A stretch of DNA of 64,000 nucleotides from positions 800,001-864,000 of the forward strand of contig CAVXGR010000018.1 of assembly GCA_963761335.1 (NCBI GenBank), given 5' to 3'. A program made the translations under genes and the position numbers. This document shows, piece after piece, positions 2,753 to 62,519 of this stretch. The first letter of the stretch is position 1; each line of letters opens with the position of its first letter. Under the pieces are notes generated by a model, which was not told the origin of the DNA, did no database searches, and saw nothing but the letters and a program-made list of their open reading frames with translations. Origin of the DNA: an uncultured delta proteobacterium. GTDB lineage: Bacteria; Desulfobacterota; Binatia; HRBIN30; BPIQ01.

Positions 2753-5341
2753 ATGAAGCGGCGAATCTCAGTCCGATCTGGAATCTTCCTATCCCTGCTT
2801 CTCTCTGCGGCGATGCTCGCCGGTTGCGGCGGCGACTCCGAGGTGACCGTCGTCCAGCCGATTCCGGTGACGGTGTCCGGTCAGGTGCAGCTGCCGCCCG
2901 CTTCGTTGGCACAGGCGCCGTCCTGGATCCGCCGCATCGCGGAGATCGTGGTGGCGCGCGCCGAGGCATTGATGGGCATCGCTCCGGCACCGAACGTCGA
3001 GGTCGACGCCGTCGGCGCCACCGACTCCGATCTGATCTCCCCCGAGGCCACTGGAGTTCTGCAGCCGGTCGGCGTGACGCTGACCGACGCCGACGGAGTC
3101 TACTCCGTGCCGATCGGTGAGCTGTCCCTCGACGGCTGCAACGGCGATGCCCAGCGTGTCGTCGTTCTCGCCCGCGCCGGCGGGATTACCCGCGCCTTCG
3201 CGTCGCGCCAGACCAGCGTCGACATCAACGCCGCCAGTGAGGCCGTGGTTCGCCTGGTGGCCGAGCGCATCACCGCCGATCCCGGCCTGAGCATCTGCGA
3301 TCTCACCAATGCCGAGATCGACAACATCCAGGGCGCCGTTTCGACGGCCACACTCGACGTCTCGGGCGCCACGGTCGACGAGATCAACAACAACGCCTTC
3401 GAGGCTGCGGCCGCGGACGAGGCGGTCAACGCCGCCCTCGACGCCGCCTTCGGAACCACAGGCTCGCCCACGCCGACGGCGACGCCGACCACCACCGGCA
3501 CCCCGGCAACGGCGTCGCCGACGGTCACCGCCGGGGCGGCGACGCAGACGCCGGTCGAGACACAGACCGGCGGCCCGACGGAAACCGCGGTCCCCGCGAC
3601 TTCTACTCCGATCTCGACCTTCACCCGCACGCCGACGATGCCGGTGGTGATGTTCACCTTCACTCCTACTTCGACGATGGTGCCGGTCACCCCGCCCACC
3701 GAGACGGAGACGCCGGCGCCGACCGAGACTCCCACTCCGGGACCGGAGATCGCCATCGGCACCGCCAGCGGCAACCCGGGCGATACCGTCGAGGTGCCGC
3801 TCTCGCTGCAGAGCAATGGCCCCAACATCATTCTCATTGCACCTCTGGAGATCACCTTCGATCCGGACGTCCTGACCTTCACCACTTGCACCTCACTGCT
3901 CTCCGCCGACTACACGGTGCAGGCGGCCAACCCCGACTCGGGCCTGCTGCGCTTGGTCGTGCAGTCGGGCGCCAACCTGGTGATTCCCGACGGCGAGTTC
4001 GCCACCTGCAGCTTCGAGATCGCAGCCTCGGCGACCCCGGGCGCGACCACGACTGTCGGCTTCCAGGCGGCCGGCATGAGCGACGACAACTTCAACGACA
4101 TCACCGGCTCCGGCGTCGACGGCTCGGTAACGGTCGCTGGCGGCGCCACGGAGACGCCGACGGAGACCGCTGTGGTGGAGACATCGACTCCCACTGTCGG
4201 TGGGCCCACGGAGACGGTCACGCCGATGGCCACGGCGACGCAGGCGCCGAACCTGCCCTCGATTACTATCGGTACGGCGAACGGCGACCCGGGTACAATG
4301 GTCTCGGTGCCGGTTTCCCTGAACAGCAACGGTGTCGACATCATCCTGATCGGGCCGCTCGAGTTCACCTTCGACCCGGCCGTCCTGACCTTCAACAACT
4401 GCACCTCCTCGCTGCCCGGTGATTACACGGTTCAAGCGGCGAACCCGGAAACGGGGTTGGTTCGTATGGTCATTCAGTCGGGGGCCAACCTCGTCATTCC
4501 GAACGACCAGTTGGCGACCTGCAGCTTCACCATCTCCGCCTCGGCAATGACAGGTACGACCACGCCGTTGACCTTCCAGGCGGCCGGGATGAGCGATGTG
4601 GACTTCAACGACATCACCGGGGCTGGCGTCAATGGCGAGGTTGGCATCGGCGCCGCCGCCGCGACGCCGACGGCCACGGTGACCGAGACCGCAGTGCCGG
4701 CTACCGAGACCGCAGTGCCGGCCACAGAGACCGCAGTGCCGGCCACAGAGACTGCGGTGCCGGCGACTGAGACTGCGGTGCCGGCGACTTCGGTGCCGGC
4801 GACCGAAACTGCGGTGCCGGCGACCGAGACTGCGGTGCCGGCGACCGAGACTGCGGTGCCGGCGACGGAGACTCCGGTGCCGCCGACCGCAACCGCGGTG
4901 CCGGCGACCCAGACGCCCACGGCGACCACCGGCATCTCCGGGCCCTCGATTGCCATTGGCTCCGGCACGGGAGCGCCAGGGGGAATGGCCTCGATACCGG
5001 TATCGCTGAGCAGCGGAGGCACCGACATCATCTTGATCGGGCCGCTCGAGTTCACCTTCGATTCTGCGGTGCTGACGTTCAACAGCTGCACCTCGTCGCT
5101 GCCGGGAAGCTACACGGTGCAGGCCGTTTCGCCGAGTGCGGGTCTGGTGCGCATGGTCATCCAGTCGGGGTCCAACCTGGTGATTCCCGACGGCGAGCTC
5201 GCCACCTGCAGCTTCACCATCGCCGCCTCGGCATCTGGCGGAACGATGACGCCGCTGATGTTCCAGGCGGCCGGGATGAGCGATGCGGACTTCAACGACA
5301 TCACCGCCGCGGGGACGGGCGGAATGGTCACCGTGGAGTGA
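2753..5341 (+). CDS. Lipoprotein scaffoldin-like protein A: N-terminal anchor domain plus 3 cohesin-like domains separated by Pro/Thr linkers
   Basis: Lipobox LAGC. Three ~130-aa repeats (~3746-4135, 4259-4648, 4946-5338) with cohesin pattern IG-x3-G-x-PG-x2-V-x-VP...L-x-F-x-FDP-x-VL...IP-x-G-x2-ATCSF-x-I...G-x-V-x-V. Confidence 0.8.
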   Translation: MKRRISVRSGIFLSLLLSAAMLAGCGGDSEVTVVQPIPVTVSGQVQLPPASLAQAPSWIRRIAEIVVARAEALMGIAPAPNVEVDAVGATDSDLISPEATGVLQPVGVTLTDADGVYSVPIGELSLDGCNGDAQRVVVLARAGGITRAFASRQTSVDINAASEAVVRLVAERITADPGLSICDLTNAEIDNIQGAVSTATLDVSGATVDEINNNAFEAAAADEAVNAALDAAFGTTGSPTPTATPTTTGTPATASPTVTAGAATQTPVETQTGGPTETAVPATSTPISTFTRTPTMPVVMFTFTPTSTMVPVTPPTETETPAPTETPTPGPEIAIGTASGNPGDTVEVPLSLQSNGPNIILIAPLEITFDPDVLTFTTCTSLLSADYTVQAANPDSGLLRLVVQSGANLVIPDGEFATCSFEIAASATPGATTTVGFQAAGMSDDNFNDITGSGVDGSVTVAGGATETPTETAVVETSTPTVGGPTETVTPMATATQAPNLPSITIGTANGDPGTMVSVPVSLNSNGVDIILIGPLEFTFDPAVLTFNNCTSSLPGDYTVQAANPETGLVRMVIQSGANLVIPNDQLATCSFTISASAMTGTTTPLTFQAAGMSDVDFNDITGAGVNGEVGIGAAAATPTATVTETAVPATETAVPATETAVPATETAVPATETAVPATSVPATETAVPATETAVPATETAVPATETPVPPTATAVPATQTPTATTGISGPSIAIGSGTGAPGGMASIPVSLSSGGTDIILIGPLEFTFDSAVLTFNSCTSSLPGSYTVQAVSPSAGLVRMVIQSGSNLVIPDGELATCSFTIAASASGGTMTPLMFQAAGMSDADFNDITAAGTGGMVTVE
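4682..4882 (+). repeat. 21-bp coding tandem repeat (TETAVPA)n in the scaffoldin linker
   Basis: TETAVPA x5, TSVPA, TETAVPA x3, TETPVPP; units differ mainly at third codon positions. Confidence 0.9.
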
Positions 5342-5414: not shown

Positions 5415-8400
5415 ATGAAGCAGCGAATCTCAGCAGGGGCCCGTGCGCTGTTGCTGGTTGTGGTTTCGGCGGCGCTGCTTGCCGGTTGCGGCGGCAGCGC
5501 CGAGGTGCTGGTCACTCAGCCGGCGCCGTTGACGGTTGCCGGGCGCGTGCAGCTGCCGCCGGCGTCCTTTGCGCAGGCGCCGTCTTGGCTGCGCCGCTTC
5601 GCGGAGCTGGTTGTCGCCCGGGCCGAGGCCTTGATCGGCGTGGCGCCGGCGCCGAACGTGGGAGTTGTGGTCGTCGGCGTCTCCGACTCGGACCTCGCCT
5701 TTGGAGACGTGACGGCGCTGCCGGCAGTCGGCACCGGGTTCACCGACAGCGAAGGTCTCTACTCGGTGCCGGTCGGAGAGCTGGCCTTTGACGGATGCAA
5801 CGGCGACGGGCAGCGGATCCTCGCCTATACTCAGGCCGGGGGTCTGACCCGCGCTCTGGCGTTTCGGGAGACCAACGTCGATATCGACGCCAGCAGCGAA
5901 GCCGTCGTGCGACTGGTCGCCGAGCGGATTGCCGCAAACCCTCAGCTGAGCGTCTGCGACCTCTCGGACAGCGAGATCGAGAGCATTCTCATCGCCGTCG
6001 CCAATGCCAGCCTCGAGGTCTCCGGTGCCACGGCGGCCGAGATCAACGACAATGCCTTTGCGGCAGCGGCCGCGGATGCCACCGTCAACGCCACTCTCGA
6101 CTCCGCCTTCGGGGTGATCACGTCACCGACGCCGACGTCGACGCCGACCGGGACGAGGACCGCGGGAACGGCGTCGCCGACTGCGACGGCGACTGAGACG
6201 GCAGTCGAGTCGCCGACGGCGACACCGGCCGAGTCGGCGACCGCGACCCCGATTGCGGAAACCGCGACGCCGTCGGTGCCGGCGACCGCGAGCGCGACTT
6301 CGATCCCCACCTTCACGCGCACCCCCACCTCGCCGGCTTTCACTCCGACTTCGACGCGCACGGCGAGCGCCATGCCTTCGCCGACCCTCACCCAGGTGGA
6401 GTCGACCCCGACGCCAACCATGGTGAGCAATCCGTCGACGCCGACGGAGACGGCGCCGCTGCCCACCGTGACCAGCCCGCCGACCGCGCCTCCCACGATC
6501 ACGGCGACGGCGGAAGTGACGCCGACTCAAGCGGCGGGTCTGCCGTCGATCGTCCTGGGGGCGGCGAACGGCGAGCCGGGAAGCACCGTTTCGGTCCCGG
6601 TGTCGCTCGACAGCAACGGCATCGACATCATCTTGATCGGGCCGCTCGAGTTCACCTTCGACGATGCCGTGCTCACCTTCAACAGCTGTACCTCGTCGCT
6701 GCCCGCCGACTACACGGTCCAAGCGGCCAACCCCGAGACGGGATTGGTGCGCATGGTCATCCAGTCGGGGGCGAATCTCGTCATCCCGAACGGAGAGCTC
6801 GCCACCTGCAGCTTCACCATCTCGGCATCGGCTCAGCTCGGTACCTCATCGACGCTGGCCTTTCAGGCGGCGGGGATGAGCGACGCCGACTTCAACGATA
6901 TAACGGGCACAGGGGATGACGGCACCGTCGACATCGGCGCCGCCGAGACGCCGACTCCAACGACGACGAGCACCGTCGCGCTTGCGAGTGAAACGCCGAC
7001 GCACACCGCGGAGCCCACCGCGACGGCGACGGTTGCGGCAGCGACGGCGACGCCCACCGAGATGATGGCGAGCGGGCCGCAGATCGTGATCGACTCCGGG
7101 TCCGCGGCTCCGGGGGATGTGGTGAGCGTGGCGGTATCGCTGCAGAGCAACGGCACGAGCATCATTCTGATTGGGCCCCTGGAGTTCACCTTCGATCCGG
7201 CGGTGCTGACCTTCGGCAACTGCACATCGTCACTTTCAGCCGACTACACGGTCCAGGCGGCCAATCCCGACACGGGGTTGGTGCGCATGGTGATTCAGTC
7301 GGGGGCGAACCTGGTGATCCCGGACGGCCAGCTCGCCACTTGCAGCTTCACGGTGTCGGCCTCGGCCGATCTCGGAGCCATGACGCCACTGAGCTTCCAG
7401 GCGGCGGGCATGAGCGACGTCGATTTCAACGACATCACCGCGGGCGGCGTGAGCGGAGAGGTGACCGTGGGTAGTGCCGAGGCTTCGCCGACAGCCACCG
7501 AGCCGCCGGCGACGGCGACCGCGACCCAGCCGGCGGCGACCGCGACACCGACCGAGACCTCGGTACCGGCGACCGCGACTGAGACCTCGGGACCGCCTAC
7601 GGCGACGTCGGTACCGGCGACCGCCACCAGCACCGTGGCGCCGCCGGCTACCGAGACCTCGACTCCCGTTCCTCCGGCCACCGGGACGGCCACCGCCGTG
7701 CCGCCGAGCACCACGCCGACCGAGATGATGGCGAGTGGACCACAGATCGTCATCGGAGCCGGGGCCGCTGCTCCGGGCGAGATGGCGAGCGTGCCGGTTT
7801 CGCTGCAGAGCAACGGGCCCAGCATCATCCTCATCGGGCCGCTGGAGCTCACCTTCGATCCGGCGGTGCTGACCTTTGAGAGCTGCACCACGTCGCTGTC
7901 GGCCGACTATACGGTTCAGGCCGTCAGTCCCGAGACCGGGTTGGTACGCATGGTGATCCAGTCGGGGGCGAACCTGGTGATTCCGGATGGCGAGCTCGCC
8001 ACCTGCAGCTTCACGGTTTCCGCTTCGGCGGCTCTCGGGACGATGACGCCGTTGAACTTCCAGGCGGCGGGCTTGAGCGACGCCGACTTCAACGACCTCT
8101 CCGCCAGTGGCGTCAACGGCGAGGTGATGGTCGGCGGGGCAGCGGCAACGCCGACGGAGACCGAGGAGATTGCCACCGCGACGGCGACCCAGCCGCTGGC
8201 GACGCCGACGGAAACCGTGGTGCCGGCAACGGCGACCCAGCCCGCGGCGACGGCCACGGCCACGGAGACTTCGGTACCGCCGACGGCGACGAGCACAGCC
8301 CCGCCACCGGCCACCGAGACCAGCACGGCGGTCCCAGCGACGGAGACGCCGACGCAGCCATCGGGACCGCTGATCTCCATCGGCTCCGGGTCGGGTATGC

Positions 8401-8768
8401 CCGGCGACGTGGGGGTTCCGGTGCCGATCTCCTTCAACGGCGCCGGCACCAACATCATTTTGATTGCGCCTTTGGAGTTCACCTTCGACCCGGCAGTGCT
8501 GGAATACGTGACCTGTACGTCTTCCTTGCCTGCCGACTACACGGTCCAGTCGGCGTCGCCGGATCCGGGACTGGTGCGAATGGTGGTTCAGTCAGGGGCG
8601 AACCTGGTGATCCCGGCGGGACAGATCGCCACCTGCAGCTTCACGATCTCCGCCTCGGCTTCAGGGGGCACGATGACGCCGCTGACGTTCCAGGCCGCAG
8701 GGATGAGCGACGAGGAGTTCAACGACCTCTCCGCCAGCGGAATCAATGGGAGTATCGCAGTTCAATAG
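5415..8768 (+). CDS. Lipoprotein scaffoldin-like protein B: paralog of 2753 with 4 cohesin-like domains
   Basis: Lipobox LAGC; N-domain similar to 2753 (VQLPPAS.AQAPSW.RR.AE.VVARAEAL, SEAVVRLVAERI); cohesin-like repeats ~6546-6935, 7080-7469, 7743-8132, 8370-8765; same gtgtgaATGaagc start context. Confidence 0.8.
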   Translation: MKQRISAGARALLLVVVSAALLAGCGGSAEVLVTQPAPLTVAGRVQLPPASFAQAPSWLRRFAELVVARAEALIGVAPAPNVGVVVVGVSDSDLAFGDVTALPAVGTGFTDSEGLYSVPVGELAFDGCNGDGQRILAYTQAGGLTRALAFRETNVDIDASSEAVVRLVAERIAANPQLSVCDLSDSEIESILIAVANASLEVSGATAAEINDNAFAAAAADATVNATLDSAFGVITSPTPTSTPTGTRTAGTASPTATATETAVESPTATPAESATATPIAETATPSVPATASATSIPTFTRTPTSPAFTPTSTRTASAMPSPTLTQVESTPTPTMVSNPSTPTETAPLPTVTSPPTAPPTITATAEVTPTQAAGLPSIVLGAANGEPGSTVSVPVSLDSNGIDIILIGPLEFTFDDAVLTFNSCTSSLPADYTVQAANPETGLVRMVIQSGANLVIPNGELATCSFTISASAQLGTSSTLAFQAAGMSDADFNDITGTGDDGTVDIGAAETPTPTTTSTVALASETPTHTAEPTATATVAAATATPTEMMASGPQIVIDSGSAAPGDVVSVAVSLQSNGTSIILIGPLEFTFDPAVLTFGNCTSSLSADYTVQAANPDTGLVRMVIQSGANLVIPDGQLATCSFTVSASADLGAMTPLSFQAAGMSDVDFNDITAGGVSGEVTVGSAEASPTATEPPATATATQPAATATPTETSVPATATETSGPPTATSVPATATSTVAPPATETSTPVPPATGTATAVPPSTTPTEMMASGPQIVIGAGAAAPGEMASVPVSLQSNGPSIILIGPLELTFDPAVLTFESCTTSLSADYTVQAVSPETGLVRMVIQSGANLVIPDGELATCSFTVSASAALGTMTPLNFQAAGLSDADFNDLSASGVNGEVMVGGAAATPTETEEIATATATQPLATPTETVVPATATQPAATATATETSVPPTATSTAPPPATETSTAVPATETPTQPSGPLISIGSGSGMPGDVGVPVPISFNGAGTNIILIAPLEFTFDPAVLEYVTCTSSLPADYTVQSASPDPGLVRMVVQSGANLVIPAGQIATCSFTISASASGGTMTPLTFQAAGMSDEEFNDLSASGINGSIAVQ

Positions 8769-8909: not shown

Positions 8910-10544
8910 ATGTTTCGGAAATTGACACTTACGAATGCGCTCGCGGCCCTGGCAGGCGTGGCCTGCATCTTGGCGCTGCCGGCGATGGTCGCGGCGCAGT
9001 GCCTTGGCGACTGCGACGCCAACAACAGCGTCACCGCTTCCGACCTGGCAAAGATCAATCAGCTGCTGCTCAAGTGCCCGTGCTCCGGTGGGTTGCTGGG
9101 GGGCGATCCGGCTGGCTGCGCCGGCGGCGGCACCATCACCTGCGCCGCCGCGGATAAGAACATGAACAACTGCATCACGGCCAGCGAGAAGGCGCAGATC
9201 AACGCGCAGGTGCTGAATAACGGCTCGACGTGCCCGGCGCCTCCCACCCCGACGCCGGTCATGAATTGCCCGCAGGACTTCACCGTGCAGCTGGCGGAGG
9301 CCAGCCAGGCGCGCATTCAGACTCTTGGCGTGGGTCTGTTCCCGACGACGGGGGGGTTGGCGCTGCAGGGAACCCTGAGGGTGGAGGTCTCGTGCCCGGA
9401 CGCCAACGGCATCGCCACCATCACCATGCCCGCGGCCGATGCCCACCTCCAGCCGGTCGATCTGGGCGCGCTGGGCACGGCCTGCGTCGAGCTGAGCGCC
9501 GACGCCGTTGGGACAGTCGATTGCGACGGTGGGTCGACACCGGGGCCGGACTTCACCTTCACCAAGGATCACGATACCAACCCGGCGCACACGATTGCCG
9601 GCTCGCCGCCCGGCCTGCCGAACGATGTGGAGTGCGACGACGTCTTCACGTTCGGCGGCCTGCCTCCCTCGTATGCCTGTCAGGAAGGGAAGAAGAGGTG
9701 TCTGGGGGGCACGAACTTCGGCATGCTCTGCACGACGGATGCCGGCTGTCCGGGCTCGACCTGCGTGGCGTGCTCGAGCGGAACCCGTTCGAACAGCACC
9801 TGCGACAGCCCCACGGTGATCACCGAGAGCGGCACGTTCCGGCCGGGAGACGTTGTTCTGACCACGGTGCAGAAGATCACGGTCGTGGCGCCGGCAGCGT
9901 ACGGGGCGGACGGGATACCGTGCACGGCGGACGACGGCGATCCGTCGCTGCCGCCGACCGAGTCCCCGGCGATCTTCAGCACGGGCCATGTGCAGGCAGA
10001 GGTGTGGGACGCGACCACGGCGGCAGGCGGGACGCTGAGCAAGAACAACCGCATCGGCACCGGGTCGTTGACTTCGTGCGAGACGAATGCGGACTGCCCG
10101 TCCATCTGTCTTGGAGGGAGCAACGCCGGTGGGCAGTGCTTCGTGGCCGGCGACTGTCCTGGAGGGAGCTGCCCGCGCACCCGGATCTGCATCGGAGGCA
10201 CCAACAATCTCCAACCGTGCCTCTACAACTCGGATTGCCCCGGCAGCGGCGCCTATTGCAACGACGTCGGCAATCTCCTGGAGACCTGCTACGAGGGCGA
10301 TCCACCGCTCGGCGGGGGGGCGCAGACGCTGTGCGGCACGGGACACGCGCAGCCGTGCTACTGCCGCGCCAAATGCAGTATGGCGGGCTGCGTCAACGGG
10401 ACCACTGGCAACCCGGGGAGCTGTGCGGCGGTGTTCAGCGCCTCTCCCAATCTGTCGGGCCTCAGCCTCGGTGGAGCCTTCCCGACACTCGACTTCACGC
10501 TCGGCGGCGACGCGGTCGTCTACTTCCAGTTCGTCGTGCAGTGA
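8910..10544 (+). CDS. Secreted protein with N-terminal dockerin-like domain and Cys-rich C-terminal module (copy 1)
   Basis: Signal peptide ending VAA-Q; duplicated Ca-loop/helix motifs GDCDANNSVTASDLAKINQLLL and ADKNMNNCITASEKAQINAQVL; PPTPTP linker; 425-aa module from CPQDFTVQL. Confidence 0.75.
   Translation: MFRKLTLTNALAALAGVACILALPAMVAAQCLGDCDANNSVTASDLAKINQLLLKCPCSGGLLGGDPAGCAGGGTITCAAADKNMNNCITASEKAQINAQVLNNGSTCPAPPTPTPVMNCPQDFTVQLAEASQARIQTLGVGLFPTTGGLALQGTLRVEVSCPDANGIATITMPAADAHLQPVDLGALGTACVELSADAVGTVDCDGGSTPGPDFTFTKDHDTNPAHTIAGSPPGLPNDVECDDVFTFGGLPPSYACQEGKKRCLGGTNFGMLCTTDAGCPGSTCVACSSGTRSNSTCDSPTVITESGTFRPGDVVLTTVQKITVVAPAAYGADGIPCTADDGDPSLPPTESPAIFSTGHVQAEVWDATTAAGGTLSKNNRIGTGSLTSCETNADCPSICLGGSNAGGQCFVAGDCPGGSCPRTRICIGGTNNLQPCLYNSDCPGSGAYCNDVGNLLETCYEGDPPLGGGAQTLCGTGHAQPCYCRAKCSMAGCVNGTTGNPGSCAAVFSASPNLSGLSLGGAFPTLDFTLGGDAVVYFQFVVQ
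9267..10544 (+). repeat. 1278-bp coding repeat, copy 1
   Basis: Colinear and equal in length to 14804-16081 and 17712-18989; about 30-35 aa differences from copies 2/3 by manual comparison. Confidence 0.95.
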
Positions 10545-15900: not shown

Positions 15901-16081
15901 CCGCGCCAAATGCGGCTCGGCGGGCTGCGTCAACGGGACCACGGGCAACCCGGGGAGCTGCGCGGCGGTGTTCAGCGCCTCTCCCAGTCTGTCGGGGGTG
16001 GTCCTCGGCGGCGCCTTCCCGACGCTGGACTTCCAGCTCGGCGGCGACGCCGTCGTCTACTTCAACTTCGCCGTGCAGTGA
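12953..16081 (+). CDS. Secreted modular protein: beta-propeller, DTD-domain, Myxococcus Cys-rich repeat, Pro/Thr linker, Cys-rich module (copy 2)
   Basis: Signal ending ARA; repeated GLAF..GGTLYA / L.T.N..TG.AT.VG blades; CGNGIIETDHEECDDGNRLPGDGCDQGC; C-terminal module. Confidence 0.8.
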   Translation: MKRIIVSTGIAALLLGALTTPARAILFGSIPNASGSDLVTIDQVNGTATLVGAIGFKAVKGLAVRPSDGTMFASTGYVAGGTNIGKILTVNTMGGVGAALPSQDQDGITALAFSPGGTLYATCRWFNTDHQPDVLCTINQLDGSATPVDQFQALDPNFLVEGFDGLAFDSGGTLYASTNNFTAGEPQLYTVNPATGVATVVGPIRTGGGVQLSAGVVDIRFIGSTLFGATSDGRIITIDKASGIYTVVGLTGLGNAEGLAELIVNTPTPTIPTPPTGTAPPTATPTPKPCAGKLAPVNPCAPGRGSKKTDCFMEWLVTPVPGLDRKGLPVKKVICYEGDPACDIDTDLGNKECTFQAQICLNNNDPRFPECQPLDITSFEVKKPNPDKPKDATDTANAATLEDQAANGFGITVVRKKLVISLESSDSTPDDCSPALPLRVPLKVTNSGKIRKFHKTFRIRGTTSLPTRPNVDTDVLHLECRPSTCGNGIIETDHEECDDGNRLPGDGCDQGCHIEPTPAPTNTPVSTSTSAPTGTPLPETPTSTPVITATNTAVPATATFTGTSTPIGPTSTATETPIPADTATVTETPIPTQTGTITETPTITETATITPTGAPITCPQDFTVQLASASEARIQTLGVGLFPTTGGLALQGSLRVEVSCPDVNGIATITMPAADADLQPVDLGALGTACVELSADAVGTVDCDGGTTPGPDFIFTKDHDTNPAHTIAGSPPGLPNDAGCDDVFTFGGLPPSYACLEGTKRCLGGTNLGMVCTTDAGCPGSTCVACSSGTRSNSTCDSPTVITESGTFRPGEIVLTTVQKITVLPPSAYGADGIPCTADDGAPSLPPTESPAIFSTGLVQAKVWDATTAQNGTLSKNNRIDTGSLTSCATNADCPSICIGGSNAGGQCFVAGDCPGGSCPRTRICIGGTNNLHPCLYNSDCPGSGAYCNDVGNLLETCYEGDPPLGGGAQTLCGPGHVEPCYCRAKCGSAGCVNGTTGNPGSCAAVFSASPSLSGVVLGGAFPTLDFQLGGDAVVYFNFAVQ

Positions 16082-55864: not shown

Positions 55865-56569
55865 ATGATTCGCAAGGCGGGTAGCTGTCTCGTTTACGTG
55901 TGCTTGGTCGTGGCGATGCTGGGCTGCGGCCACAACGGTGGTGTCGTCGCCGGCCTCACCGGGCCGGAGCCGGCGCCGGATTCTCCGGTGGTGACCGGAG
56001 GCGTGTTGGCCCCCAACGGCGAGCTCGCCTACGCGCCGTCGCTCCTGCAGCGCTTCGCGGATCTCGTCCTGCCTACGGCGAGGGCGCTCGACCCCCGCGT
56101 GACCAACATCGGTGCCGGCGTCAACGTCGTCTTCGAGCAGCTCTACGACACCTCGACGCCCGGGCAGTTCGAGGAGGTGCGCCTCAGCAGCAGTCCGACC
56201 AATCTGAGCGGCCGCTTTGCGGTCGCCATTCCGGACTACATCGTCATTGGCGCCTGCCCGCCTCTCATGCTCAAGGTCGGTGAAGGCCCGACCCTGACGC
56301 GGGCCCTGGTCTACGACCAGAGCGATCAGGACGTCCGTCCGGAGAGCGAGGCGGTGGTGCGCCTGATCTTCTCTCTGCTCGCCGATCGACCCGCGGTCGG
56401 GATCTGCGATTTCTCCGCGGACGAGATCGCGCAGCTGACCGCCATGGTCGAGGACGATGCCGCCTCCACCTTCGGCGACAGCGTGCAGGACCTCAACGAC
56501 CGCGTCGAGCAGCTCGCCGCCGCCGACCCGGACGTGGTGAACGCCCTGAACGCCTTTGCCGGTCGCTAG
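55865..56569 (+). CDS. Lipoprotein consisting only of the scaffoldin N-terminal anchor domain
   Basis: GAGGT RBS; lipobox MLGC; APSLLQRFADLV...ARAL, LTRAL, SEAVVRLI, ICDFSADEI, AAADP.V..AL align with the 2753/5415 N-domains. Confidence 0.8.
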   Translation: MIRKAGSCLVYVCLVVAMLGCGHNGGVVAGLTGPEPAPDSPVVTGGVLAPNGELAYAPSLLQRFADLVLPTARALDPRVTNIGAGVNVVFEQLYDTSTPGQFEEVRLSSSPTNLSGRFAVAIPDYIVIGACPPLMLKVGEGPTLTRALVYDQSDQDVRPESEAVVRLIFSLLADRPAVGICDFSADEIAQLTAMVEDDAASTFGDSVQDLNDRVEQLAAADPDVVNALNAFAGR

Positions 56570-56668
56570 CAGCCCGAGCCGCTGGCGAATCCGGCGGCCG
56601 GCCCTCCCGAGCGGCTCCGGAACGGGCGGAAGCGCCCAATTCCAACGCCGTAGCGAGGAGAAATTGTC

Positions 56669-56698
56669 TTGACAAATATTGGAAGCTCAGTCCATACT
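56669..56698 (+). promoter_or_regulatory. Putative sigma70 promoter
   Basis: TTGACA-18 nt-CATACT about 100 nt upstream of 56800. Confidence 0.5.
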
Positions 56699-56799
56699 GC
56701 GGCGCACTTTCGGCAGGGATGTATGCCGGGGTCGCGCGTCAGTGGGCCGGGACGTGGGCGGTCAAAGTTGTGGTTCAGTAAGTAGGAGAGAAACGGACT

Positions 56800-58251
56800 A
56801 TGCGACGACTCGGACTTCACGCGGCGATGGCTGCCACTGCCCTGCTGATGGCAGCCCAAATGGTCGCCGCGCAGATCCCTGCAGATACCTGTACGGCCTT
56901 TCAGTCCAGTGTTGAGTTCAGCCTGGAGTGTCCGATCGACAACCCGCCCTCCACCTGTGTGGACGATGGCCTCGGTGCCCAGGCGGTGGTCTCCGCGGAC
57001 GTGGACGGCGACGGCATCCCCGACCTGGTGATCGCCAACAACGAATCGGACAACGTCAGCGTTCTCTACGGCAACGGCGACGGGACCTTCGTCGAGCCGC
57101 CCGTCAACGTCGAGGCCTTCTTCGGCCCCTCTGCCGTGGCTGTGGCGGACATGAACCGGGACGGCAAACGCGACATCGTCGTCGCCCACGACTTCGACAG
57201 CAACGTGGCAATTCTCTTGCAGGGCGCCACGCGCGACAGCTTCACTCTGGGAGGCGACCTGGGCACCGGCGACGGACCGGAGGGATTAGTGGTGGCCGAC
57301 TTCAACGGCGACGGCTTTCCCGACGCCGCCACCGCCAATTACAGCGACGACAACAGCACGGTCTCGGTTCTGCTGGGTGCCGGCGACGGGACCTTCATGT
57401 CGCGGGCCGACTACATGACCTCCACTGAGTCTTTTGTCGGGCCCTTCGCGCTCGCCGTCGCCGACTTGAACCGCGACGGCTTTCTCGACTTGGCGGTCGC
57501 CAACGCCGACGATTCACCGAGCAGTGTCGGCGTCCTCTTGGGGGCCGGCGACGGCAACTTCGACCTGCTCTCGACCTTCCCGGTCGGCCGCGACCTCGGC
57601 GGGCCGGTTTCCATTGCGATAGCGGATTTCAACATCGACAATATTCCCGACGTGGTGACCGCCAACGAGGACGACTTCACGGTGTCGGTGCTGCTCGGAC
57701 AGGGCGATGGGCAGCTGGGAACCAAGACCGACATCGAGGTGGGGATCAGCCCGGAAGCAGTTGCCGTGTCGGATCTGAACCTCGACGGCCGTCCCGACAT
57801 CGCGGTGGCCAACTCGCTGGCGGACAGCGACGGAGTGACGGTCCTGCGCGGCGATGGCTCCGGAGCCTTTCTGGCCGGCGATGCCGGCGGTTGTGCGGAT
57901 TCGGGCAATTTCGCCATCGGCGGCTTTCTTCCCACCGGCATCGCGATCGGGGATTTCAATCGCAACGGGAAGCATGATATTGCTACCGCGAACAGCGATG
58001 ACCCTTCAATGGCGGTGTCCGTATTGCTCAACAGCGGCAATCTGCTCCTGGGCGACAGCAACGCCGACGGCAGCCTCACCACCGCCGACGTCGACCAGGT
58101 CGTTCCGGAGATATTTGACGGAGACGGGTCAAACGTGATTACTGTGGCGGGTGGAACGACGCAATCGGGGCCAGGAGTAGATGGGAACAAAGATCATGTC
58201 ATCAGCGCAGCGGACATTTTGGCAGTCGCGACCATCGTGGTCGGCGGGTGA
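56800..58251 (+). CDS. Secreted FG-GAP propeller with C-terminal dockerin-like domain
   Basis: Signal ending VAA-Q; seven D-x-[ND]-x-[DN]-G-type FG-GAP repeats; C-terminal GDSNADGSLTTADVDQVV and VDGNKDHVISAADILAV. Confidence 0.8.
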   Translation: MRRLGLHAAMAATALLMAAQMVAAQIPADTCTAFQSSVEFSLECPIDNPPSTCVDDGLGAQAVVSADVDGDGIPDLVIANNESDNVSVLYGNGDGTFVEPPVNVEAFFGPSAVAVADMNRDGKRDIVVAHDFDSNVAILLQGATRDSFTLGGDLGTGDGPEGLVVADFNGDGFPDAATANYSDDNSTVSVLLGAGDGTFMSRADYMTSTESFVGPFALAVADLNRDGFLDLAVANADDSPSSVGVLLGAGDGNFDLLSTFPVGRDLGGPVSIAIADFNIDNIPDVVTANEDDFTVSVLLGQGDGQLGTKTDIEVGISPEAVAVSDLNLDGRPDIAVANSLADSDGVTVLRGDGSGAFLAGDAGGCADSGNFAIGGFLPTGIAIGDFNRNGKHDIATANSDDPSMAVSVLLNSGNLLLGDSNADGSLTTADVDQVVPEIFDGDGSNVITVAGGTTQSGPGVDGNKDHVISAADILAVATIVVGG

Positions 58252-58276
58252 AAACCCCAACGAGGAGGAGAGACCC

Positions 58277-59254
58277 ATGACAGTTTGGATGGCTCGGGTG
58301 CTTGCGGTGGCGGCGGGGGCCCTTCTGGTAGGTGCCGGCGCAAGCTACGCGCAGCTCGCGCAGTGCGCAGGGGACGGATGCGTCAACGTCTCGGTTGTCA
58401 GTCCGGCGGGCGGCCCCTTTGCCGTGGGCGACACGCTCACTGTCGGGGTGAACTTCGCGCAGGGCACTGGAGACACTCCGCCCGGCGGACGCGGTGATGT
58501 CGCGGCGATTGCCTTCACTCTCGCCATTCCCAATCTGGAGCTCGCCGATTGCAGCAGCCCGGATGCGAATGGGCTCACCCCCGCGTTCGATGTGTCCTCG
58601 GTATCGGATACGTATCGGGTCGTGATCGAGAACACCCAGTGCGTCGATGCCACTCGGACCCCTCCGCTCGACCGCACGCATTGCCTGTGCCCGACGCGAG
58701 AGGGTGACACACGCGATCCGTTCATCAACGTGGTGGTGTTCGGCCCGAAGGATCTGCCGACCCCAGGGGCTGGATCCGTCACTATTCCTCCGCTGCCGGC
58801 GAGCGGCAAGCTGCTCGACGTCAACCTGAAGGTCTCCGCCGACGCCACCGGGACGAGCTCGGCGCTTCACCTCTACAACGAGGTGAGCGATGCCGCGGCA
58901 CCGACCTTCGGTGCGCTCCTGTCGATTGGCGACACCCAGGCGGTCGACGTCACCGGCTGCCGGGGGCCAGGCGAGAGCATATCCTCGTGCACCGATCGCT
59001 CCGGGCAGTCCAACGTGACCACAGTGGACGGCCAGGTCGCCATCACCGGCACCGTCTCCTCGTGCATCGGCGACTGCAACAACGATTGCGAGATCAGCCT
59101 CCTCGAGTTGCAGCAGGCCCTGAATTTCTTCGTCAGCGATACGGAGCCGACGACTTGCCCCTCGTACGGCTCTTCGGTCAGCTTGCTCAACCTTCAAAAG
59201 GCCCTCAACGTGTTTGTTGGCCTGAACGGGGTGTGTCCACAGCCCTGTCCCTGA
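58277..59254 (+). CDS. Secreted cohesin-like + dockerin-like adaptor protein
   Basis: GAGGAG RBS; signal; VGDTLTVGVNF...AAIAFTL...LP.SGKLLDVNLKVSADA...VDGQVAI (divergent cohesin-like); CIGDCNNDCEISLLELQQALNFF...VSLLNLQKALNVF. Confidence 0.65.
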   Translation: MTVWMARVLAVAAGALLVGAGASYAQLAQCAGDGCVNVSVVSPAGGPFAVGDTLTVGVNFAQGTGDTPPGGRGDVAAIAFTLAIPNLELADCSSPDANGLTPAFDVSSVSDTYRVVIENTQCVDATRTPPLDRTHCLCPTREGDTRDPFINVVVFGPKDLPTPGAGSVTIPPLPASGKLLDVNLKVSADATGTSSALHLYNEVSDAAAPTFGALLSIGDTQAVDVTGCRGPGESISSCTDRSGQSNVTTVDGQVAITGTVSSCIGDCNNDCEISLLELQQALNFFVSDTEPTTCPSYGSSVSLLNLQKALNVFVGLNGVCPQPCP

Positions 59255-59356
59255 TCGGAATTGCGGCTGAGAGAAACTTTCAACTTGGGCTTTGCAGGAA
59301 CCAGATTGCGACGGAGAGTCGGTTCTTCTAACCGTCACTCGAAGATGGAGGATGAG

Positions 59357-60220
59357 ATGAGAGCATTCAAGGTAGCGGCTTGGACACTTTTGGCGGCGGT
59401 TGTCTCTTGGGCGATGCCGGGCATCGCCGCGGCAACGGTGAGCCTTTCGGTTGGGGATGCTTCCGGACAGCCCGGGGACATGGTGACGGTCGTGGTGTCG
59501 CTGGCGAAGACGGGAAGCGAGAGTGTCGGGTCGATCGCGGGTGTGCTCAACTATCAGGCCAGCACTCCGATCGCGGCGAACGGCACCACGCCGGTTTGTC
59601 AGGCGCTCGTCACCGTGGATCTGAGCAAGTTCGGCTTCCTTCCCACCGGGTGCACGGCCGATTCGTCCTGCACCTCCGTGAAGGCGACTTTGCTCAATAG
59701 CGCCGATACGGCGGCGGGTGATGTGTTCCAGTGCACTGTGGCCATCGCCGCCGATGCGACCCCAGGATCCTACGATCTCATGCTGACCGGCGCATCGTTT
59801 ACCGACCCCGCAGGGACGGTGGAGACTCAGATCGACGACGCAACCGGCACCATCATGGTCTTGGCGCCGACCGAGACGCCGCTGCCGACGGAGACGAGCA
59901 CCATTACGGTGACGCCGACCGAGACCAACACGCCGGAAGCAACCAACACGGCACTGCCGCCGACCGAGACCCCGATTCCCGCGGATACGAACACGCCGAA
60001 CCCGACGGCGACCGTTCCCGCGGCGACAGCGACTCCGGTGAAGAGTTCCACGCCGCTCCCGACGGCTACCGTGCCCGTCAATCCGACGAGCACCGCCATA
60101 CCCCCGGGTTTCCTCGAGGATGACGGCTGCCAGATCAGTGCAAGCGGCGGCACCGGGAATCCGTGGCTGTTGCTGATTCCGGCTGCGGTTCTGATCGGAG
60201 TGCGTCGCCGGCGCCGCTGA
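59357..60220 (+). CDS. Single cohesin-like domain + Pro/Thr stalk + MYXO-CTERM-like anchor (anchoring scaffoldin)
   Basis: LSVGDASGQPGDMVTVVVSL...GDVFQCTVAIAADATPGSY.L...FTDPAG...GTIMV; DDGCQISASGGTGNPWLLLIPAAVLIGVRRRRR. Confidence 0.75.
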   Translation: MRAFKVAAWTLLAAVVSWAMPGIAAATVSLSVGDASGQPGDMVTVVVSLAKTGSESVGSIAGVLNYQASTPIAANGTTPVCQALVTVDLSKFGFLPTGCTADSSCTSVKATLLNSADTAAGDVFQCTVAIAADATPGSYDLMLTGASFTDPAGTVETQIDDATGTIMVLAPTETPLPTETSTITVTPTETNTPEATNTALPPTETPIPADTNTPNPTATVPAATATPVKSSTPLPTATVPVNPTSTAIPPGFLEDDGCQISASGGTGNPWLLLIPAAVLIGVRRRRR

Positions 60221-60253
60221 TCCACAAGAGCCGTAAGCTAACAGTCTACTCAG

Positions 60254-60281
60254 AAAGGGGGCCAGAAATGGCCCCCTTTTT
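60254..60281 (+). terminator. Intrinsic terminator
   Basis: aaagggggcca-gaaa-tggcccccttttt. Confidence 0.85.
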
Positions 60282-60326
60282 GCTTTCTATGTCAGGCTCC
60301 GGAGGACCCGCTCAATTCGCCCGCTC

Positions 60327-62519
60327 TTGATCTTTGCGCTTCTGCTGATCGGCATACCCAGTGCCGGAGCGCAGCCGTATTCGGCGGAGATGCTGCCGAT
60401 GGGGAGGGGGGTCTCCCCGATGGTGACGGCTACCCTGGGAGCCGGGGGCAGTACCCACAGACGCGCACTGTCAGCGGCATCGCCGCCGGTGAGCCCAGCG
60501 GCACCGGCGCTGGTGGCGGTGCTCTCCTCCGCGGAGGCCGTCCGCACGCTCACCGATGCCGGTGTTCCGGTGGCTGCGCAGCTCGGGCGCGCCGTGTCCA
60601 TCATCCGCGGCGACTCCGACGTCGTCGAGCGCCTCAGCCGCATCCCGGAGGTTCTCTCGGTAAGACTGCCGCAGATGCTGCGCCTCCAGCTCGACGTACC
60701 CGGGCAGGGCTATGGAGCGGTGAAGATCCAGCAGACAGAAGGCCTCAGCGGCGCCGGCACGCTCTTCGGTATCATCGACAGCGGTATCGACTACACGCAT
60801 CTGGACCTCCGCCACGCCGACGGAACCACTCGCATCAAGGCGCTCTGGGATCAGCTGGACACGAGCTACGCCGACTCCGGGGGCACCATCGGCAGCCCGC
60901 CGCCGATGAACCAGGATGGATCGCCCGGGCGGGGGACGGTCTACACGGAGGAGCAGATCAACACCGCCCTCGACGGCTCCGGTATCGTCAACAGTGTCGA
61001 TCTGGTCGGTCACGGAACCCTGGTCGCCAGCATCGCCGCCGGCAATGGTCAGGCGACGGGGGGAGGGGAACCGTCCGGTGTCTACCTCGGCGTCGCTCCG
61101 CAGGCGGATATCATCGCCGTGCGCGCTGGAGGCGTGGACAGATCGGACACCAACATCAATGGCGACGTCATCGGCGGCCTTCAATGGATCGACGGAATGG
61201 CCACGGCCCTGGGCGAGCCAGTGGTCGTGAACATGAGCTTTGGCGGTCAGGTCGGCGCACACGATGGCACCACGCCGGAGGAGATCGCCATCGATTCGTT
61301 CGCACAACGATCTGGCCGCGCGGTGTCGGTCTCGGCAGGGAACGACGGCACCCAGGCCATTCACGCCAGTGGCTCGACTCGCAACACGGCAACCCTCGAC
61401 GTCTTCTATAGCGGGCAGAGCCCCAGGATCGTGGTCGACTGCTGGATACCCGGCTCCGACATCGTCGATCTCGGCTTCACCGATCCGGATGGCGCGGGAG
61501 TCCTCGACGCCAACGTCGCCGAGGGCCTCTGTGCCGTCACGCGCGGCAGCGTCAACAAGGTGTCCACCTGTCTCGGTGCGCCGAGTGCGCTCAACGGGGA
61601 TCGTGAGGTGATCTTCTTGGTCGAGCCGCTGACCAACTCGACACCGATTTCCTCCGGCGATTGGAAGTTCTACCTGCGCGACGAGGGTGGGGTTCAGGAC
61701 GGGACCTTCGACTGCTGGGAAGCCTCCCTGGAGCCGTTCACCAGCAACGTCGATCGCAGGGTCACCATCGGGCAGCCGGGAACGGCCAGAGGCGCGATCA
61801 CCGCCGGAGCCTGGTCGGGGCGCAGCTCGTGGCCGAGTCTCCAGGGCGAGACCGTCAAGGAAGGGCTGACGATCGGGGCCTTGGCGGCGTTCTCCAGTGT
61901 CGGGCCAACGCGCGACGGTCGCTTGAAGCCGGAGCTGACGGCCCCCGGCGAGTGGGTCCTGGGCGCCTGGTCGATTGCCGACGGCAGCGGCTCCGGTATC
62001 GCCGCCGTTCCCCCGGACCCGACGCGGGTCGCATCCGACGGCGTCCATGTGGCCGCGCGCGGTACCAGCTTCTCCGCCCCACAGGTCGCCGGAGCGATCG
62101 ACCTGCTGTTCGAGCTCGATCCGTCTCTGACGGCCGCCGACCTGCGCTCTCTGCTGACGCAGAGCGCCAGCGCCGACGAGTTCACCGGAGACGTCCCCAA
62201 TGACGATTGGGGCTTCGGCAAGCTCGACGTGCAGCAGGCGATTGCCGTCCTGCCCACGGCGCTGGCGACCTCGCCTACGGTCGAGCCGACCTCGACGCCG
62301 ACGGCGACCTCGATCCCCGCGACTGCATCGCCCACCACCACCGCGACGCACACGCTCATCCCCTCGCCAACGGCCAGCCTTCCTCGGTCGTCGGGTGGCG
62401 GTGGGAGCGGGTGCGCCGTGCGCGGCTCGGGAGGGAGGGGTGGCGGCCCACTTGCCCTCCTGGCGGCGCTCGCCGCCGTGGGGATTTCGTTTCGCCGGCG
62501 ACGGCAAACGCAATCTTGA
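60327..62519 (+). CDS. S8 subtilisin-like serine protease with inserted domain, Pro/Thr stalk and MYXO-CTERM-like tail
   Basis: Triad motifs GIIDSGID, GHGTLVASIAAG, GTSFSAPQVAG; SAGN oxyanion; SGCAVRG...LALLAALAAVGISFRRRR. TTG start uncertain. Confidence 0.9.
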   Translation: MIFALLLIGIPSAGAQPYSAEMLPMGRGVSPMVTATLGAGGSTHRRALSAASPPVSPAAPALVAVLSSAEAVRTLTDAGVPVAAQLGRAVSIIRGDSDVVERLSRIPEVLSVRLPQMLRLQLDVPGQGYGAVKIQQTEGLSGAGTLFGIIDSGIDYTHLDLRHADGTTRIKALWDQLDTSYADSGGTIGSPPPMNQDGSPGRGTVYTEEQINTALDGSGIVNSVDLVGHGTLVASIAAGNGQATGGGEPSGVYLGVAPQADIIAVRAGGVDRSDTNINGDVIGGLQWIDGMATALGEPVVVNMSFGGQVGAHDGTTPEEIAIDSFAQRSGRAVSVSAGNDGTQAIHASGSTRNTATLDVFYSGQSPRIVVDCWIPGSDIVDLGFTDPDGAGVLDANVAEGLCAVTRGSVNKVSTCLGAPSALNGDREVIFLVEPLTNSTPISSGDWKFYLRDEGGVQDGTFDCWEASLEPFTSNVDRRVTIGQPGTARGAITAGAWSGRSSWPSLQGETVKEGLTIGALAAFSSVGPTRDGRLKPELTAPGEWVLGAWSIADGSGSGIAAVPPDPTRVASDGVHVAARGTSFSAPQVAGAIDLLFELDPSLTAADLRSLLTQSASADEFTGDVPNDDWGFGKLDVQQAIAVLPTALATSPTVEPTSTPTATSIPATASPTTTATHTLIPSPTASLPRSSGGGGSGCAVRGSGGRGGGPLALLAALAAVGISFRRRRQTQS

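Follow-up and report, generated by a model that had tools for sequence, protein, structure and literature searches.

We analysed a 64,000-nucleotide stretch of a Candidatus Binatia metagenome-assembled genome (MAG; assembly GCA_963761335.1, contig CAVXGR010000018.1, positions 800,001 to 864,000 of the forward strand; hereafter the window) and found that three consecutive genes in it, which we call G2, G3 and G4, form a conserved operon of Candidatus Binatia and belong to a real, non-cellulosomal cohesin–dockerin system. G2 encodes a secreted FG-GAP propeller that ends in a dockerin, G3 a divergent cohesin joined to a dockerin-type tail, and G4 a cohesin followed by a Pro/Thr stalk and a C-terminal sorting tail. 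That the operon builds a calcium-dependent assembly of the cohesin–dockerin type on the cell envelope, with the products linked in the chain G2-G3-G4, is a proposal for which we hold the chances to be evenly balanced. Cohesin–dockerin assembly is the textbook case of modular protein engineering outside the cell, yet its workings are understood almost exclusively in cellulose-degrading Firmicutes. The Binatia, formerly placed with the Deltaproteobacteria, are a widespread soil and sediment lineage known only from metagenomes.

A three-gene operon conserved in Binatia

G2, G3 and G4 are preceded by a further gene, G1, and the four lie consecutively on the plus strand with intergenic gaps of 25–231 bp (Table 1). 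A preliminary description of this DNA had reported all four genes at these coordinates and had assigned their modules correctly; the four-gene unit that it proposed is replaced here by a conserved unit of G2-G3-G4. G3 was found in 38 of 40 related genomes and the domain that makes up G1 in 31 of 40 (37 of 39 and 30 of 39, respectively, without the unpublished genome G029). Because relatives of G3 are present in 38 of these genomes and the gene order recurs, G1–G4 are real genes and not chance open reading frames (ORFs); spurious ORFs of a 66% GC genome were considered and ruled out by the homologs and the synteny.

Gene order was compared in 14 loci, consisting of the loci of 10 G3 relatives (records assigned to Candidatus Binatia in six cases, to 'bacterium' in two, and to Thermodesulfobacteriota and Deltaproteobacteria in one each) together with L076, L077, L078 and L079 from related genomes. 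In all of the first 10 loci, an FG-GAP gene with a dockerin-type tail stands directly upstream of G3 and a cohesin gene directly downstream, one of the latter being a contig-end fragment. L078 and L079 have the same G2-G3-G4 order. L076, from the same family as the window, shows G1-G2-G3 and then the contig end, and L077, also from this family, shows G3 followed by a multi-cohesin scaffoldin with the N-terminal domain described below (the N-domain), with no G2 found at that locus. Over all loci, the FG-GAP gene is immediately 5′ of G3 in 13 of 14, and the downstream cohesin gene ends in a tail of the form DDDGC-x-IV...GW-x-LL-x-P...RRRSR in 11 of 14.

A promoter-like site 5′ of G2 and a terminator-like hairpin 3′ of G4 enclose exactly G2-G3-G4. 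The promoter-like site is unique between positions 55500 and 63000, and shuffled sequence averages 0.6 such sites. In one sediment RNA library, contigs 92–99% alike fall on G2, G3 and G4, and one of 265 nt, with 2 differences, runs from G2 across its stop codon and into the start of G3; such libraries can contain DNA, and the contigs are no proof of a transcript. G1 and most of the S8 subtilase gene that follows G4 are uncovered by the RNA-library contigs listed, which says nothing on their expression; likewise, the small shares of sequence words in sequencing runs X2–X7 say nothing on habitat.

G2 joins an FG-GAP propeller to a dockerin

Pfam matched the G2 propeller to FG-GAP_3 (E 5.3e-51, 171.5 bits compared to a cut-off of 26.9, in 7 stretches) and to FG-GAP (E 1.5e-24). 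In the last ~65 residues of the protein there are two loops of the D-x-N-x-D type (DSNADGSLTTAD and DGNKDHVISAAD), and a helix follows each of them. For comparison we used a profile made solely from the 19 dockerins of the same genome that score above the Pfam cut-off (certified dockerins), which was searched against 53,144 six-frame ORFs; the G2 tail matched it over hmm positions 5–54 with E 2.6e-7 and 31.9 bits. From its sequence, the G2 tail appears to be made of duplicated calcium-loop and helix segments homologous to those of certified dockerins. The same dockerin subtype occurs in the same-family relative L076 and in L019, a paralog from the same genome.

G3 pairs a divergent cohesin with a dockerin-type tail

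The AlphaFold2 model of G3 has a predicted local distance difference test (pLDDT) score of 74.9 overall, with residues 30–200 mostly at 85–96. Foldseek searches with residues 31–258 gave 86 matches at E ≤ 0.001, with cohesins leading and Ruminococcus flavefaciens ScaC at their head (E 1.1e-8). In a VIA comparison, the domain aligned with the C. acetobutylicum cohesin 6kgd_A at Z 13.7 and a root-mean-square deviation of 2.5 over 140 of 146 residues; 49 of the 50 entries listed were cohesins, and identity to solved cohesins was 11–24%. The N-terminal domain of G3, as modelled, is a nine-stranded jelly-roll cohesin fold. It exceeds a classical cohesin by ~85 residues, and Cys is invariant at positions 30, 35, 92, 122, 136 and 138. 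The G3 family comprises 15 relatives of ~300 aa. One of the 16 members matched Pfam Cohesin (PF00963), with E 0.049, and alignment of G3 with the scaffoldin cohesins by hhalign gave 14% and E 0.0019.

The tails of this family have the consensus GDCNGDGxVxxxEL...C..FDxNxNGxVxIxEL...GC. Compared with the 19 certified dockerins, the tail family aligned across both loops (hhalign 96.8%, E 2.8e-10).

G4 bears a cohesin and a MYXO-CTERM-type tail

Alignment of G4 with the window's seven certified cohesins by hhalign gave 97.2% and E 3e-11 over 130 of 133 columns, and BLASTP matched its cohesin to those of the scaffoldins at E 2e-5. A profile of the G4 class recovered the seven certified cohesins in turn, at E 1e-6 to 1e-10 per domain, and 5 of the 8 members of the G4 family matched Pfam Cohesin at E ≤ 0.1 (best 7.9e-7).

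The tail of G4 (LEDDGCQISASGGTGNPWLLLIPAAVLIGVRRRRR) has a signature Cys, a transmembrane helix and an Arg-rich extreme C-terminus, and the Cys is kept in all tails listed for the downstream cohesin gene. Scored with the TIGR03901 MYXO-CTERM model, which has a cut-off of 20, this tail reached 18.2 bits in a protein scan and 22.5 bits in a six-frame genome search; the corresponding values for the tail of the S8 subtilase were 17.1 and 23.6 bits. The six-frame search returned 20 MYXO-CTERM matches in the genome, 10 of them above the cut-off. The genome also encodes a 209-aa CPBP protease (L080:1468-2097, minus strand), ~14 kb past the S8 gene and ~12.5 kb beyond the window, that scores 105.6 bits for the NF040914 myxosortase core at G000:C18:876522-876830, compared to a cut-off of 100; this cut-off was exceeded in 0 of 14 control genomes. 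MrtX cleaves MYXO-CTERM and is needed to anchor TraA on the Myxococcus surface (PMC11980579), and the curators of the signal report it only from Myxococcota and Bradymonadales, with outside hits treated as singletons (10.1101/2023.06.07.544157).

The S8 orthologs in three relatives (L009:9025-11205, L010:9970-12135 and L013:10214-12484) end in a Cys-type dockerin-like tail, whereas the subtilase of the window has a membrane tail, and the two are therefore likely to be alternative tethers of the same enzyme. Elsewhere in the window, a MYXO-CTERM-like tail at 46088–46177 ends a 1030-aa ORF and scores 18.8 bits, just below the cut-off. At G000:C11:606412-607402, on the minus strand, a G4-class cohesin is divided equally between two adjacent ORFs, the second of which has a MYXO-CTERM tail (30.9 bits) at its end; a frame change or an assembly error seems to have broken up a G4 paralog here. 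The CPBP protease gene adjoins genes for a PilT-like ATPase and an RlpA-like lipoprotein.

A genome-wide set of cohesins and dockerins

Pfam Dockerin_1 gave 47 matches in the genome at E ≤ 1, with 25 above the cut-off; a profile iterated within the genome picked up 60 dockerin ORFs, and the profile of certified dockerins alone picked up 52 at E < 1e-3. For Pfam Cohesin there were 16 matches, 8 above the cut-off, and cohesin profiles detected 20 domains in 11 ORFs, plus two domains of the G3 class. In total, the genome has about 22 cohesin modules and 50–60 dockerin-bearing ORFs. The dockerins are carried by many single-tail secreted proteins and the cohesins by few lipid-anchored, multi-socket proteins, and the set therefore follows the logic of cohesin–dockerin display.

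Of the 57 dockerin ORFs scanned, 26 had a Pfam match at E ≤ 1e-5. Their cargo includes propellers of the FG-GAP, NHL, Kelch, RCC1 and lactonase types, two trypsins, a multihaem cytochrome, and GSDH, beta-helix/NosD, MbnP, phosphoesterase and lectin-like domains. No glycoside-hydrolase catalytic family was found among the 57 at this threshold; one beta-helix dockerin protein also touches PF12708, beneath stronger Beta_helix/NosD matches. The other 31 had no match, and undetected enzymes are therefore possible. No carbohydrate-binding module was found on the scaffoldins, for which Cohesin was the sole Pfam family above the cut-off. A cellulosome proper was ruled out by three findings: no glycoside-hydrolase family on dockerin ORFs, no carbohydrate-binding module, and no S-layer homology (SLH) or sortase anchor. 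Thus, the analogy with cellulosomes drawn in the preliminary description applies to the architecture, which runs parallel, and fails for the system itself, in which none of the 57 dockerin ORFs scanned showed a glycoside-hydrolase catalytic family.

A tiered chain and its alternatives

In the proposed chain, G4 would be the anchor, exported through Sec and then cut in its tail and lipid-linked by the myxosortase-type CPBP protease of the genome, with its cohesin kept away from the membrane by the Pro/Thr stalk. G3 would be the adaptor, inserting its dockerin-type tail into a cohesin, most likely that of G4, and presenting its own divergent cohesin as a second socket. G2 would be on display at the head of the chain, its integrin-like propeller presumably serving to bind a ligand or a surface. 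It most likely docks on G3, giving the chain from G2 to G3 to G4, because its type of dockerin is fused directly before a G3-type cohesin in L019. The operon as a whole would be one node of the genome-wide cohesin–dockerin network, whose recognizable cargo consists of propellers, proteases, a multihaem cytochrome and dehydrogenases rather than carbohydrate-active enzymes.

L019 (G000:C12:726388-730494, minus strand) is a protein of 1369 aa in which FG-GAP repeats and a long-linker dockerin of the G2 type stand directly before a cohesin of the G3 type (41% identity, E 1e-28); a Pro/Thr linker and another dockerin come after it. Apart from this cohesin and that of G3 itself, the genome has no member of the G3 class. 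Fusions of this kind, which combine G2-like and G3-like parts, are often seen for interacting partners, and L019 favours the tiered reading. A homolog search found no fused longer forms of G3 at E ≤ 1e-5, a weak negative in that L019 of the same genome was also missed. In the window and in L076, G2 and G3 bear tails of different types (identity 0.37), which likewise favours the chain; this difference is seen only in the window's family, that is, in these two loci. Prediction of a complex between the G4 cohesin (residues 24–172) and the G3 tail (residues 258–325) gave a score of 0.15 and a mark of 0.32, without controls, and speaks neither for nor against their binding.

Several results weigh against the chain and are given here with the explanations that they would favour. 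We infer every binding step, the calcium dependence, the sequence of the tiers and, by analogy with Myxococcus, exposure at the surface, and G1 lies beside the cluster in only 1 of the 14 relatives' loci. At the level of single modules, G4 falls below the Pfam Cohesin cut-off of 24.1 (19.7 bits for the whole protein and 21.3 bits for the domain alone, with a match that covers profile positions 1–41 only), the G2 tail falls below the Dockerin_1 cut-off of 22.9 (13.3 bits, E 0.099, positions 1–52 of 57), and G3 has no Pfam or NCBIfam match in either its domain or its tail. Among the 16 G3-family tails, Pfam gives EF-hand in 10 and Dockerin_1 in 0, and when solved structures were searched with a G3-family profile, the tail matched EF-hand proteins only (best E 0.0011), with neither cohesin nor dockerin chains among the matches. 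In the window's G3 tail, the second loop is four residues shorter and lacks acidic ligands, the tail is modelled at a pLDDT of 36–56, and the certified-dockerin profile does not match it; half of the tail is degenerate, and its function as a plug is therefore doubtful in this genome. In L076, from the same family, the G3 tail retains both loops.

The EF-hand matches and the half-degenerate tail would fit an explanation in which the domains only resemble cohesins and dockerins and do not pair. The tails would then be calcium-binding EF-hand pairs that stabilize secreted proteins or bind another component of the envelope, for example polysaccharide or an S-layer, the cohesin folds would act as spacers or adhesive beta-sandwiches, and the genes would be neighbours through shared export and a shared location in the envelope. 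Cohesin and dockerin modules of unknown role are reportedly widespread outside cellulosomes, in all domains of life. Four observations argue the other way: cohesins and dockerins are expanded together in one genome, in the numbers given above; their carriers are complementary, with multi-socket lipid-anchored proteins on one side and diverse single-tail secreted proteins on the other; S8 orthologs swap a dockerin tail for a membrane tail; and the tail family is homologous to certified dockerins at the profile level. We regard mere resemblance as decidedly unlikely.

Comparison of the tails within genomes bears on the order of docking. In 9 of 12 relatives, the best match of the G2 tail among the 14 G3 tails was the G3 tail of its own genome, the two tails being mutual closest matches. 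Identity between G2 and G3 tails averaged 0.63 within and 0.51 between genomes (Mann–Whitney p 5e-4, with kin that are not independent) and was 0.62–0.79 in 10 of 13 within-genome pairs. Such near-identical tails argue against a chain and for one socket common to both proteins, unless they reflect no more than gene conversion between neighbours. G2 and G3, joined in relatives by S8, might each plug into cohesins of the G4 type or of the scaffoldins with no hierarchy among them; the cohesin of G3 would then recruit some other dockerin protein or be spare, and the cluster would be a small hub. Parallel docking of this sort would also suit the G4 orthologs of L012, L015, L016, L017 and L079, which have two cohesins, and the S8 orthologs of L009, L010 and L013, which carry the same tail type, and L019 could reflect domain shuffling without interaction. 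It is harder to reconcile with the window and its same-family relative, in which G2 has a different, non-Cys, long-linker dockerin, with the single cohesin of the window's G4, or with L019, which puts a G2-type dockerin beside a G3-type cohesin; moreover, gene conversion of adjacent genes could explain the similarity of the tails. We consider parallel docking somewhat unlikely, and the tiered chain remains our preferred reading.

A further arrangement would have G3 assemble with itself, head to tail, into a fibre or sheet begun on G4 and capped by G2. G3 does combine a cohesin and a dockerin in one small protein, is conserved in 38 of 40 relatives with one copy in each, and always adjoins the anchor and the propeller. 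Specific support for self-assembly is lacking, the full-length model shows no confident contact between the tail (pLDDT < 60) and its own cohesin, and L019 ends in a different dockerin type; we rate this arrangement as highly improbable.

The tiered assembly of the preliminary description is thus upheld in part. Its account of an anchor, an adaptor and a cargo protein is fair, because the N-terminal domains encoded at 58277 and 59357 proved to be cohesin folds, by fold match for G3 and by hhalign for G4, and because synteny shows that these genes co-occur with dockerin-bearing proteins in relatives. Its hierarchy is less secure, as the near-identical tails in most relatives fit parallel docking better.

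G1 corresponds to the anchoring domain of the scaffoldins

Near its start, the window encodes two lipoprotein scaffoldins with several cohesins each (Table 1). G1 aligns over its full length with the first ~235 residues of both, in a three-way alignment and by profile, and BLASTP with the protein of 2753–5341 gave 29% over 198 aa (residues 24–211 of the latter, E 9e-10). G1 therefore appears to be the anchoring domain of a scaffoldin alone. Its signal peptide ends in a lipobox Cys (...VVAMLGC-G), with C21-G22 unchanged in every one of the 40 family members aligned, and G1 is accordingly predicted from its sequence to be a lipoprotein; the start at 55865 agrees with the N-termini of homologs. 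An exhaustive HMMER search recovered 170 representatives of the domain at E ≤ 0.001, either as stand-alone proteins of ~230–270 aa or as the N-terminus of proteins of 560–1385 aa, and the genome itself has four copies of the N-domain.

The AlphaFold2 model of G1 (pLDDT 85.9) has a beta-sandwich at residues 42–150 followed by four helices at residues 159–232. G1 has no Pfam match, and Foldseek gave no convincing relative, the best E being 0.012 (transthyretin/HIUase) and type II X-dockerin chains following at ~0.02. The best VIA match, at Z 6.7, is below a meaningful level, with weak similarity to sandwiches of the transthyretin/CarboxypepD_reg type, and the ESM Atlas returned solely 'hypothetical/putative lipoprotein' clusters. 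The second-best VIA match, the non-haem domain of Geobacter PgcA (9i0e_A; Z 6.2, 124 residues), is too weak to call; PgcA is likewise a lipoprotein, a cytochrome with Pro/Thr linkers.

No G1 homologs were detected in the first 10 relatives' loci by phmmer or the N-domain profile. We propose that G1 is a lineage-specific extra that has the anchoring domain of the multi-cohesin lipoproteins but no cohesin. The preliminary description had tied the cluster to the scaffoldin locus at 2.7–10.5 kb through the shared N-domain; the rarity of G1 beside the cluster in relatives weakens this tie. In relatives G003, G012, G015 and G024, N-domain genes share the contig and strand of G3 at a distance of ~33–34 kb, a spacing that recalls the ~50 kb between the scaffoldin locus and the cluster in the window and that suggests a loosely conserved larger neighbourhood.

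Relation to known systems

The closest architectural parallel is with the multi-tier cellulosomes of Clostridia and Ruminococcus. Their adaptor scaffoldins include R. flavefaciens ScaC and A. cellulolyticus ScaA, and their anchors include C. thermocellum OlpA, OlpC and SdbA and R. flavefaciens ScaE. The cohesin fold is common to both systems, with ScaC, OlpA, OlpC, SdbA and ScaE among the structural matches of G3, as is the two-segment calcium-loop dockerin, and the same classes of protein occur: an adaptor with cohesin and dockerin, an anchor with one cohesin on a linker, primary scaffoldins with several cohesins, and numerous proteins that carry a dockerin. The Binatia system differs in its host, which is represented by a MAG and is not a Gram-positive anaerobe, in its anchors, which are an N-terminal lipoprotein domain or a MYXO-CTERM-type tail rather than SLH or sortase anchors, and in the G3 cohesin with its ~85 extra residues and conserved Cys.

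Non-cellulosomal modules from Archaeoglobus fulgidus (2xdh) and Clostridium perfringens (2jh2, 2vo8 and 2w1n, from toxin complexes) match G3 at Z 11.4–12.3 and are likewise found on proteins unrelated to cellulose breakdown. Compared to these, the Binatia set is expanded genome-wide, has dedicated scaffoldins and new anchor types, and includes a core operon of three genes conserved across an order. With the MYXO-CTERM/myxosortase system of TraA and MrtX, the G4 tail shares the Cys motif, hydrophobic helix and Arg-rich end, and the Binatia genome shares a CPBP protease over the NF040914 cut-off. It lies outside the curated MYXO-CTERM range of Myxococcota and Bradymonadales, yet has 10 over-threshold tails; compared to the Myxococcota, the G4 family has its own motif (DDDGC-x-IV-x-P...GW-x-LL-x-P...RRRSR), and the cargo is a cohesin. 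G2 resembles integrin-alpha and other FG-GAP proteins (VCBS, ASPIC-type) in its propeller, which has seven repeats; those proteins have a transmembrane leg, whereas G2 would be tethered by a dockerin.

Full-text literature searches, outside which most subscription journals fall, found nothing linking Binatota with dockerin, Binatia with cohesin or MYXO-CTERM with dockerin, and broader searches returned cellulosome and rumen or gut papers only. The interest of the system lies in its host lineage, its anchoring chemistry and the size of its network. We put forward tentatively, as possible though rather doubtful, a wider picture of a Binatia 'surface-ome' with two lipid-anchor routes, ~20 sockets, 50–60 plugs and, as its core, a three-tier, self-assembling, integrin-like adhesin encoded by three genes that are conserved almost universally. 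If true, this would be the first multi-tier cohesin–dockerin machine on an outer membrane and the first MYXO-CTERM/myxosortase system outside Myxococcota and Bradymonadales, and it would show the cohesin–dockerin principle to be a general means of organizing the cell surface. It would also offer new orthogonal plug–socket pairs, including Cys-rich ones, for synthetic biology, and a first handle on how Binatia interact with their surroundings. The range of the sorting pathway would, for its part, be widened by the occurrence, outside Myxococcota, of MYXO-CTERM-type tails alongside a myxosortase-core protease.

Neighbouring genes and related loci

Coordinates of the features are collected in Table 1. 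The S8 subtilase gene 3′ of G4, which we treat as a separate unit, is followed by fabF, and two genes for family III CoA-transferases lie upstream of the cluster on the opposite strand; GC content is 63–68% throughout the cluster region.

Table 1. Genes, domains and candidate control sites in the window (positions from its first nucleotide)
Feature	Position	Strand	Description
Lipoprotein scaffoldin 1	2753..5341	+	N-domain, Pro/Thr linkers, 3 cohesins; Pfam Cohesin E 9.3e-39
Lipoprotein scaffoldin 2	5415..8768	+	N-domain, Pro/Thr linkers, 4 cohesins; Pfam Cohesin E 5.9e-49
Secreted Cys-rich protein	8910..10544	+	N-terminal dockerin-like module
G1	55865..56569	+	Predicted lipoprotein of 234 aa; scaffoldin N-terminal domain alone, modelled as beta-sandwich and four helices
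Promoter-like site 5′ of G2	56669..56698	+	TTGACA-18-CATACT, 10/12 matches; consensus match only
G2	56800..58251	+	Secreted FG-GAP propeller with C-terminal two-loop dockerin
G2 signal peptide and propeller	56800..58050	+	Seven-bladed FG-GAP beta-propeller, from Pfam
G2 C-terminal dockerin	58051..58251	+	Two calcium-loop/helix segments, long Gly-rich linker, no Cys
G3	58277..59254	+	Divergent cohesin and Cys-rich dockerin-type tail
G3 signal peptide	58277..58366	+	Hydrophobic N-terminus ending SYA/Q; modelled helix at residues 3–19
G3 divergent cohesin	58367..59050	+	Residues 31–258; fold match, insertions, conserved Cys
G3 dockerin-type tail	59063..59254	+	Cys-rich; first calcium loop intact, second degenerate
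G4	59357..60220	+	Cohesin, Pro/Thr stalk, MYXO-CTERM-type tail
G4 signal peptide	59357..59437	+	Hydrophobic N-terminus ending IAA/A, predicted from sequence
G4 cohesin	59438..59857	+	Homology to scaffoldin cohesins
G4 Pro/Thr stalk	59861..60112	+	84 residues, 19 Pro and 25 Thr (52%)
G4 C-terminal sorting tail	60113..60220	+	DDGC motif, hydrophobic helix, RRRRR
Terminator-like hairpin 3′ of G4	60251..60282	+	14-bp stem with 8 G-C pairs, 4-nt loop, T-rich tail; consensus match only
S8 subtilase (separate unit)	60327..62519	+	Pfam Peptidase_S8 E 1.3e-32; tail like that of G4

The dockerin-like module of the Cys-rich protein next to the scaffoldins scores 18.6 bits for Dockerin_1 over positions 1–56 of 57, below the cut-off, and matches the certified-dockerin profile at E 0.0021. 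This protein has a Cys-rich C-terminal domain of ~430 residues, matched by no Pfam family, in common with the protein of 12953–16081; the latter contains DUF4394 and DUF4215, and DUF4215 is also found in the protein of 488–1855.

Cohesins and dockerins also lie together at other loci. In the relative's locus L011, an extra gene between G3 and G4 (L011:8900-10015) combines a G4-class cohesin with a dockerin-type tail and would be a second adaptor. In the window's own genome, a 962-aa ORF at G000:C25:56595-59480 bears a cohesin and a dockerin-like module and is therefore another adaptor-like protein, and at G000:C13:182913-186813 a 134-aa dockerin ORF adjoins two cohesin ORFs.

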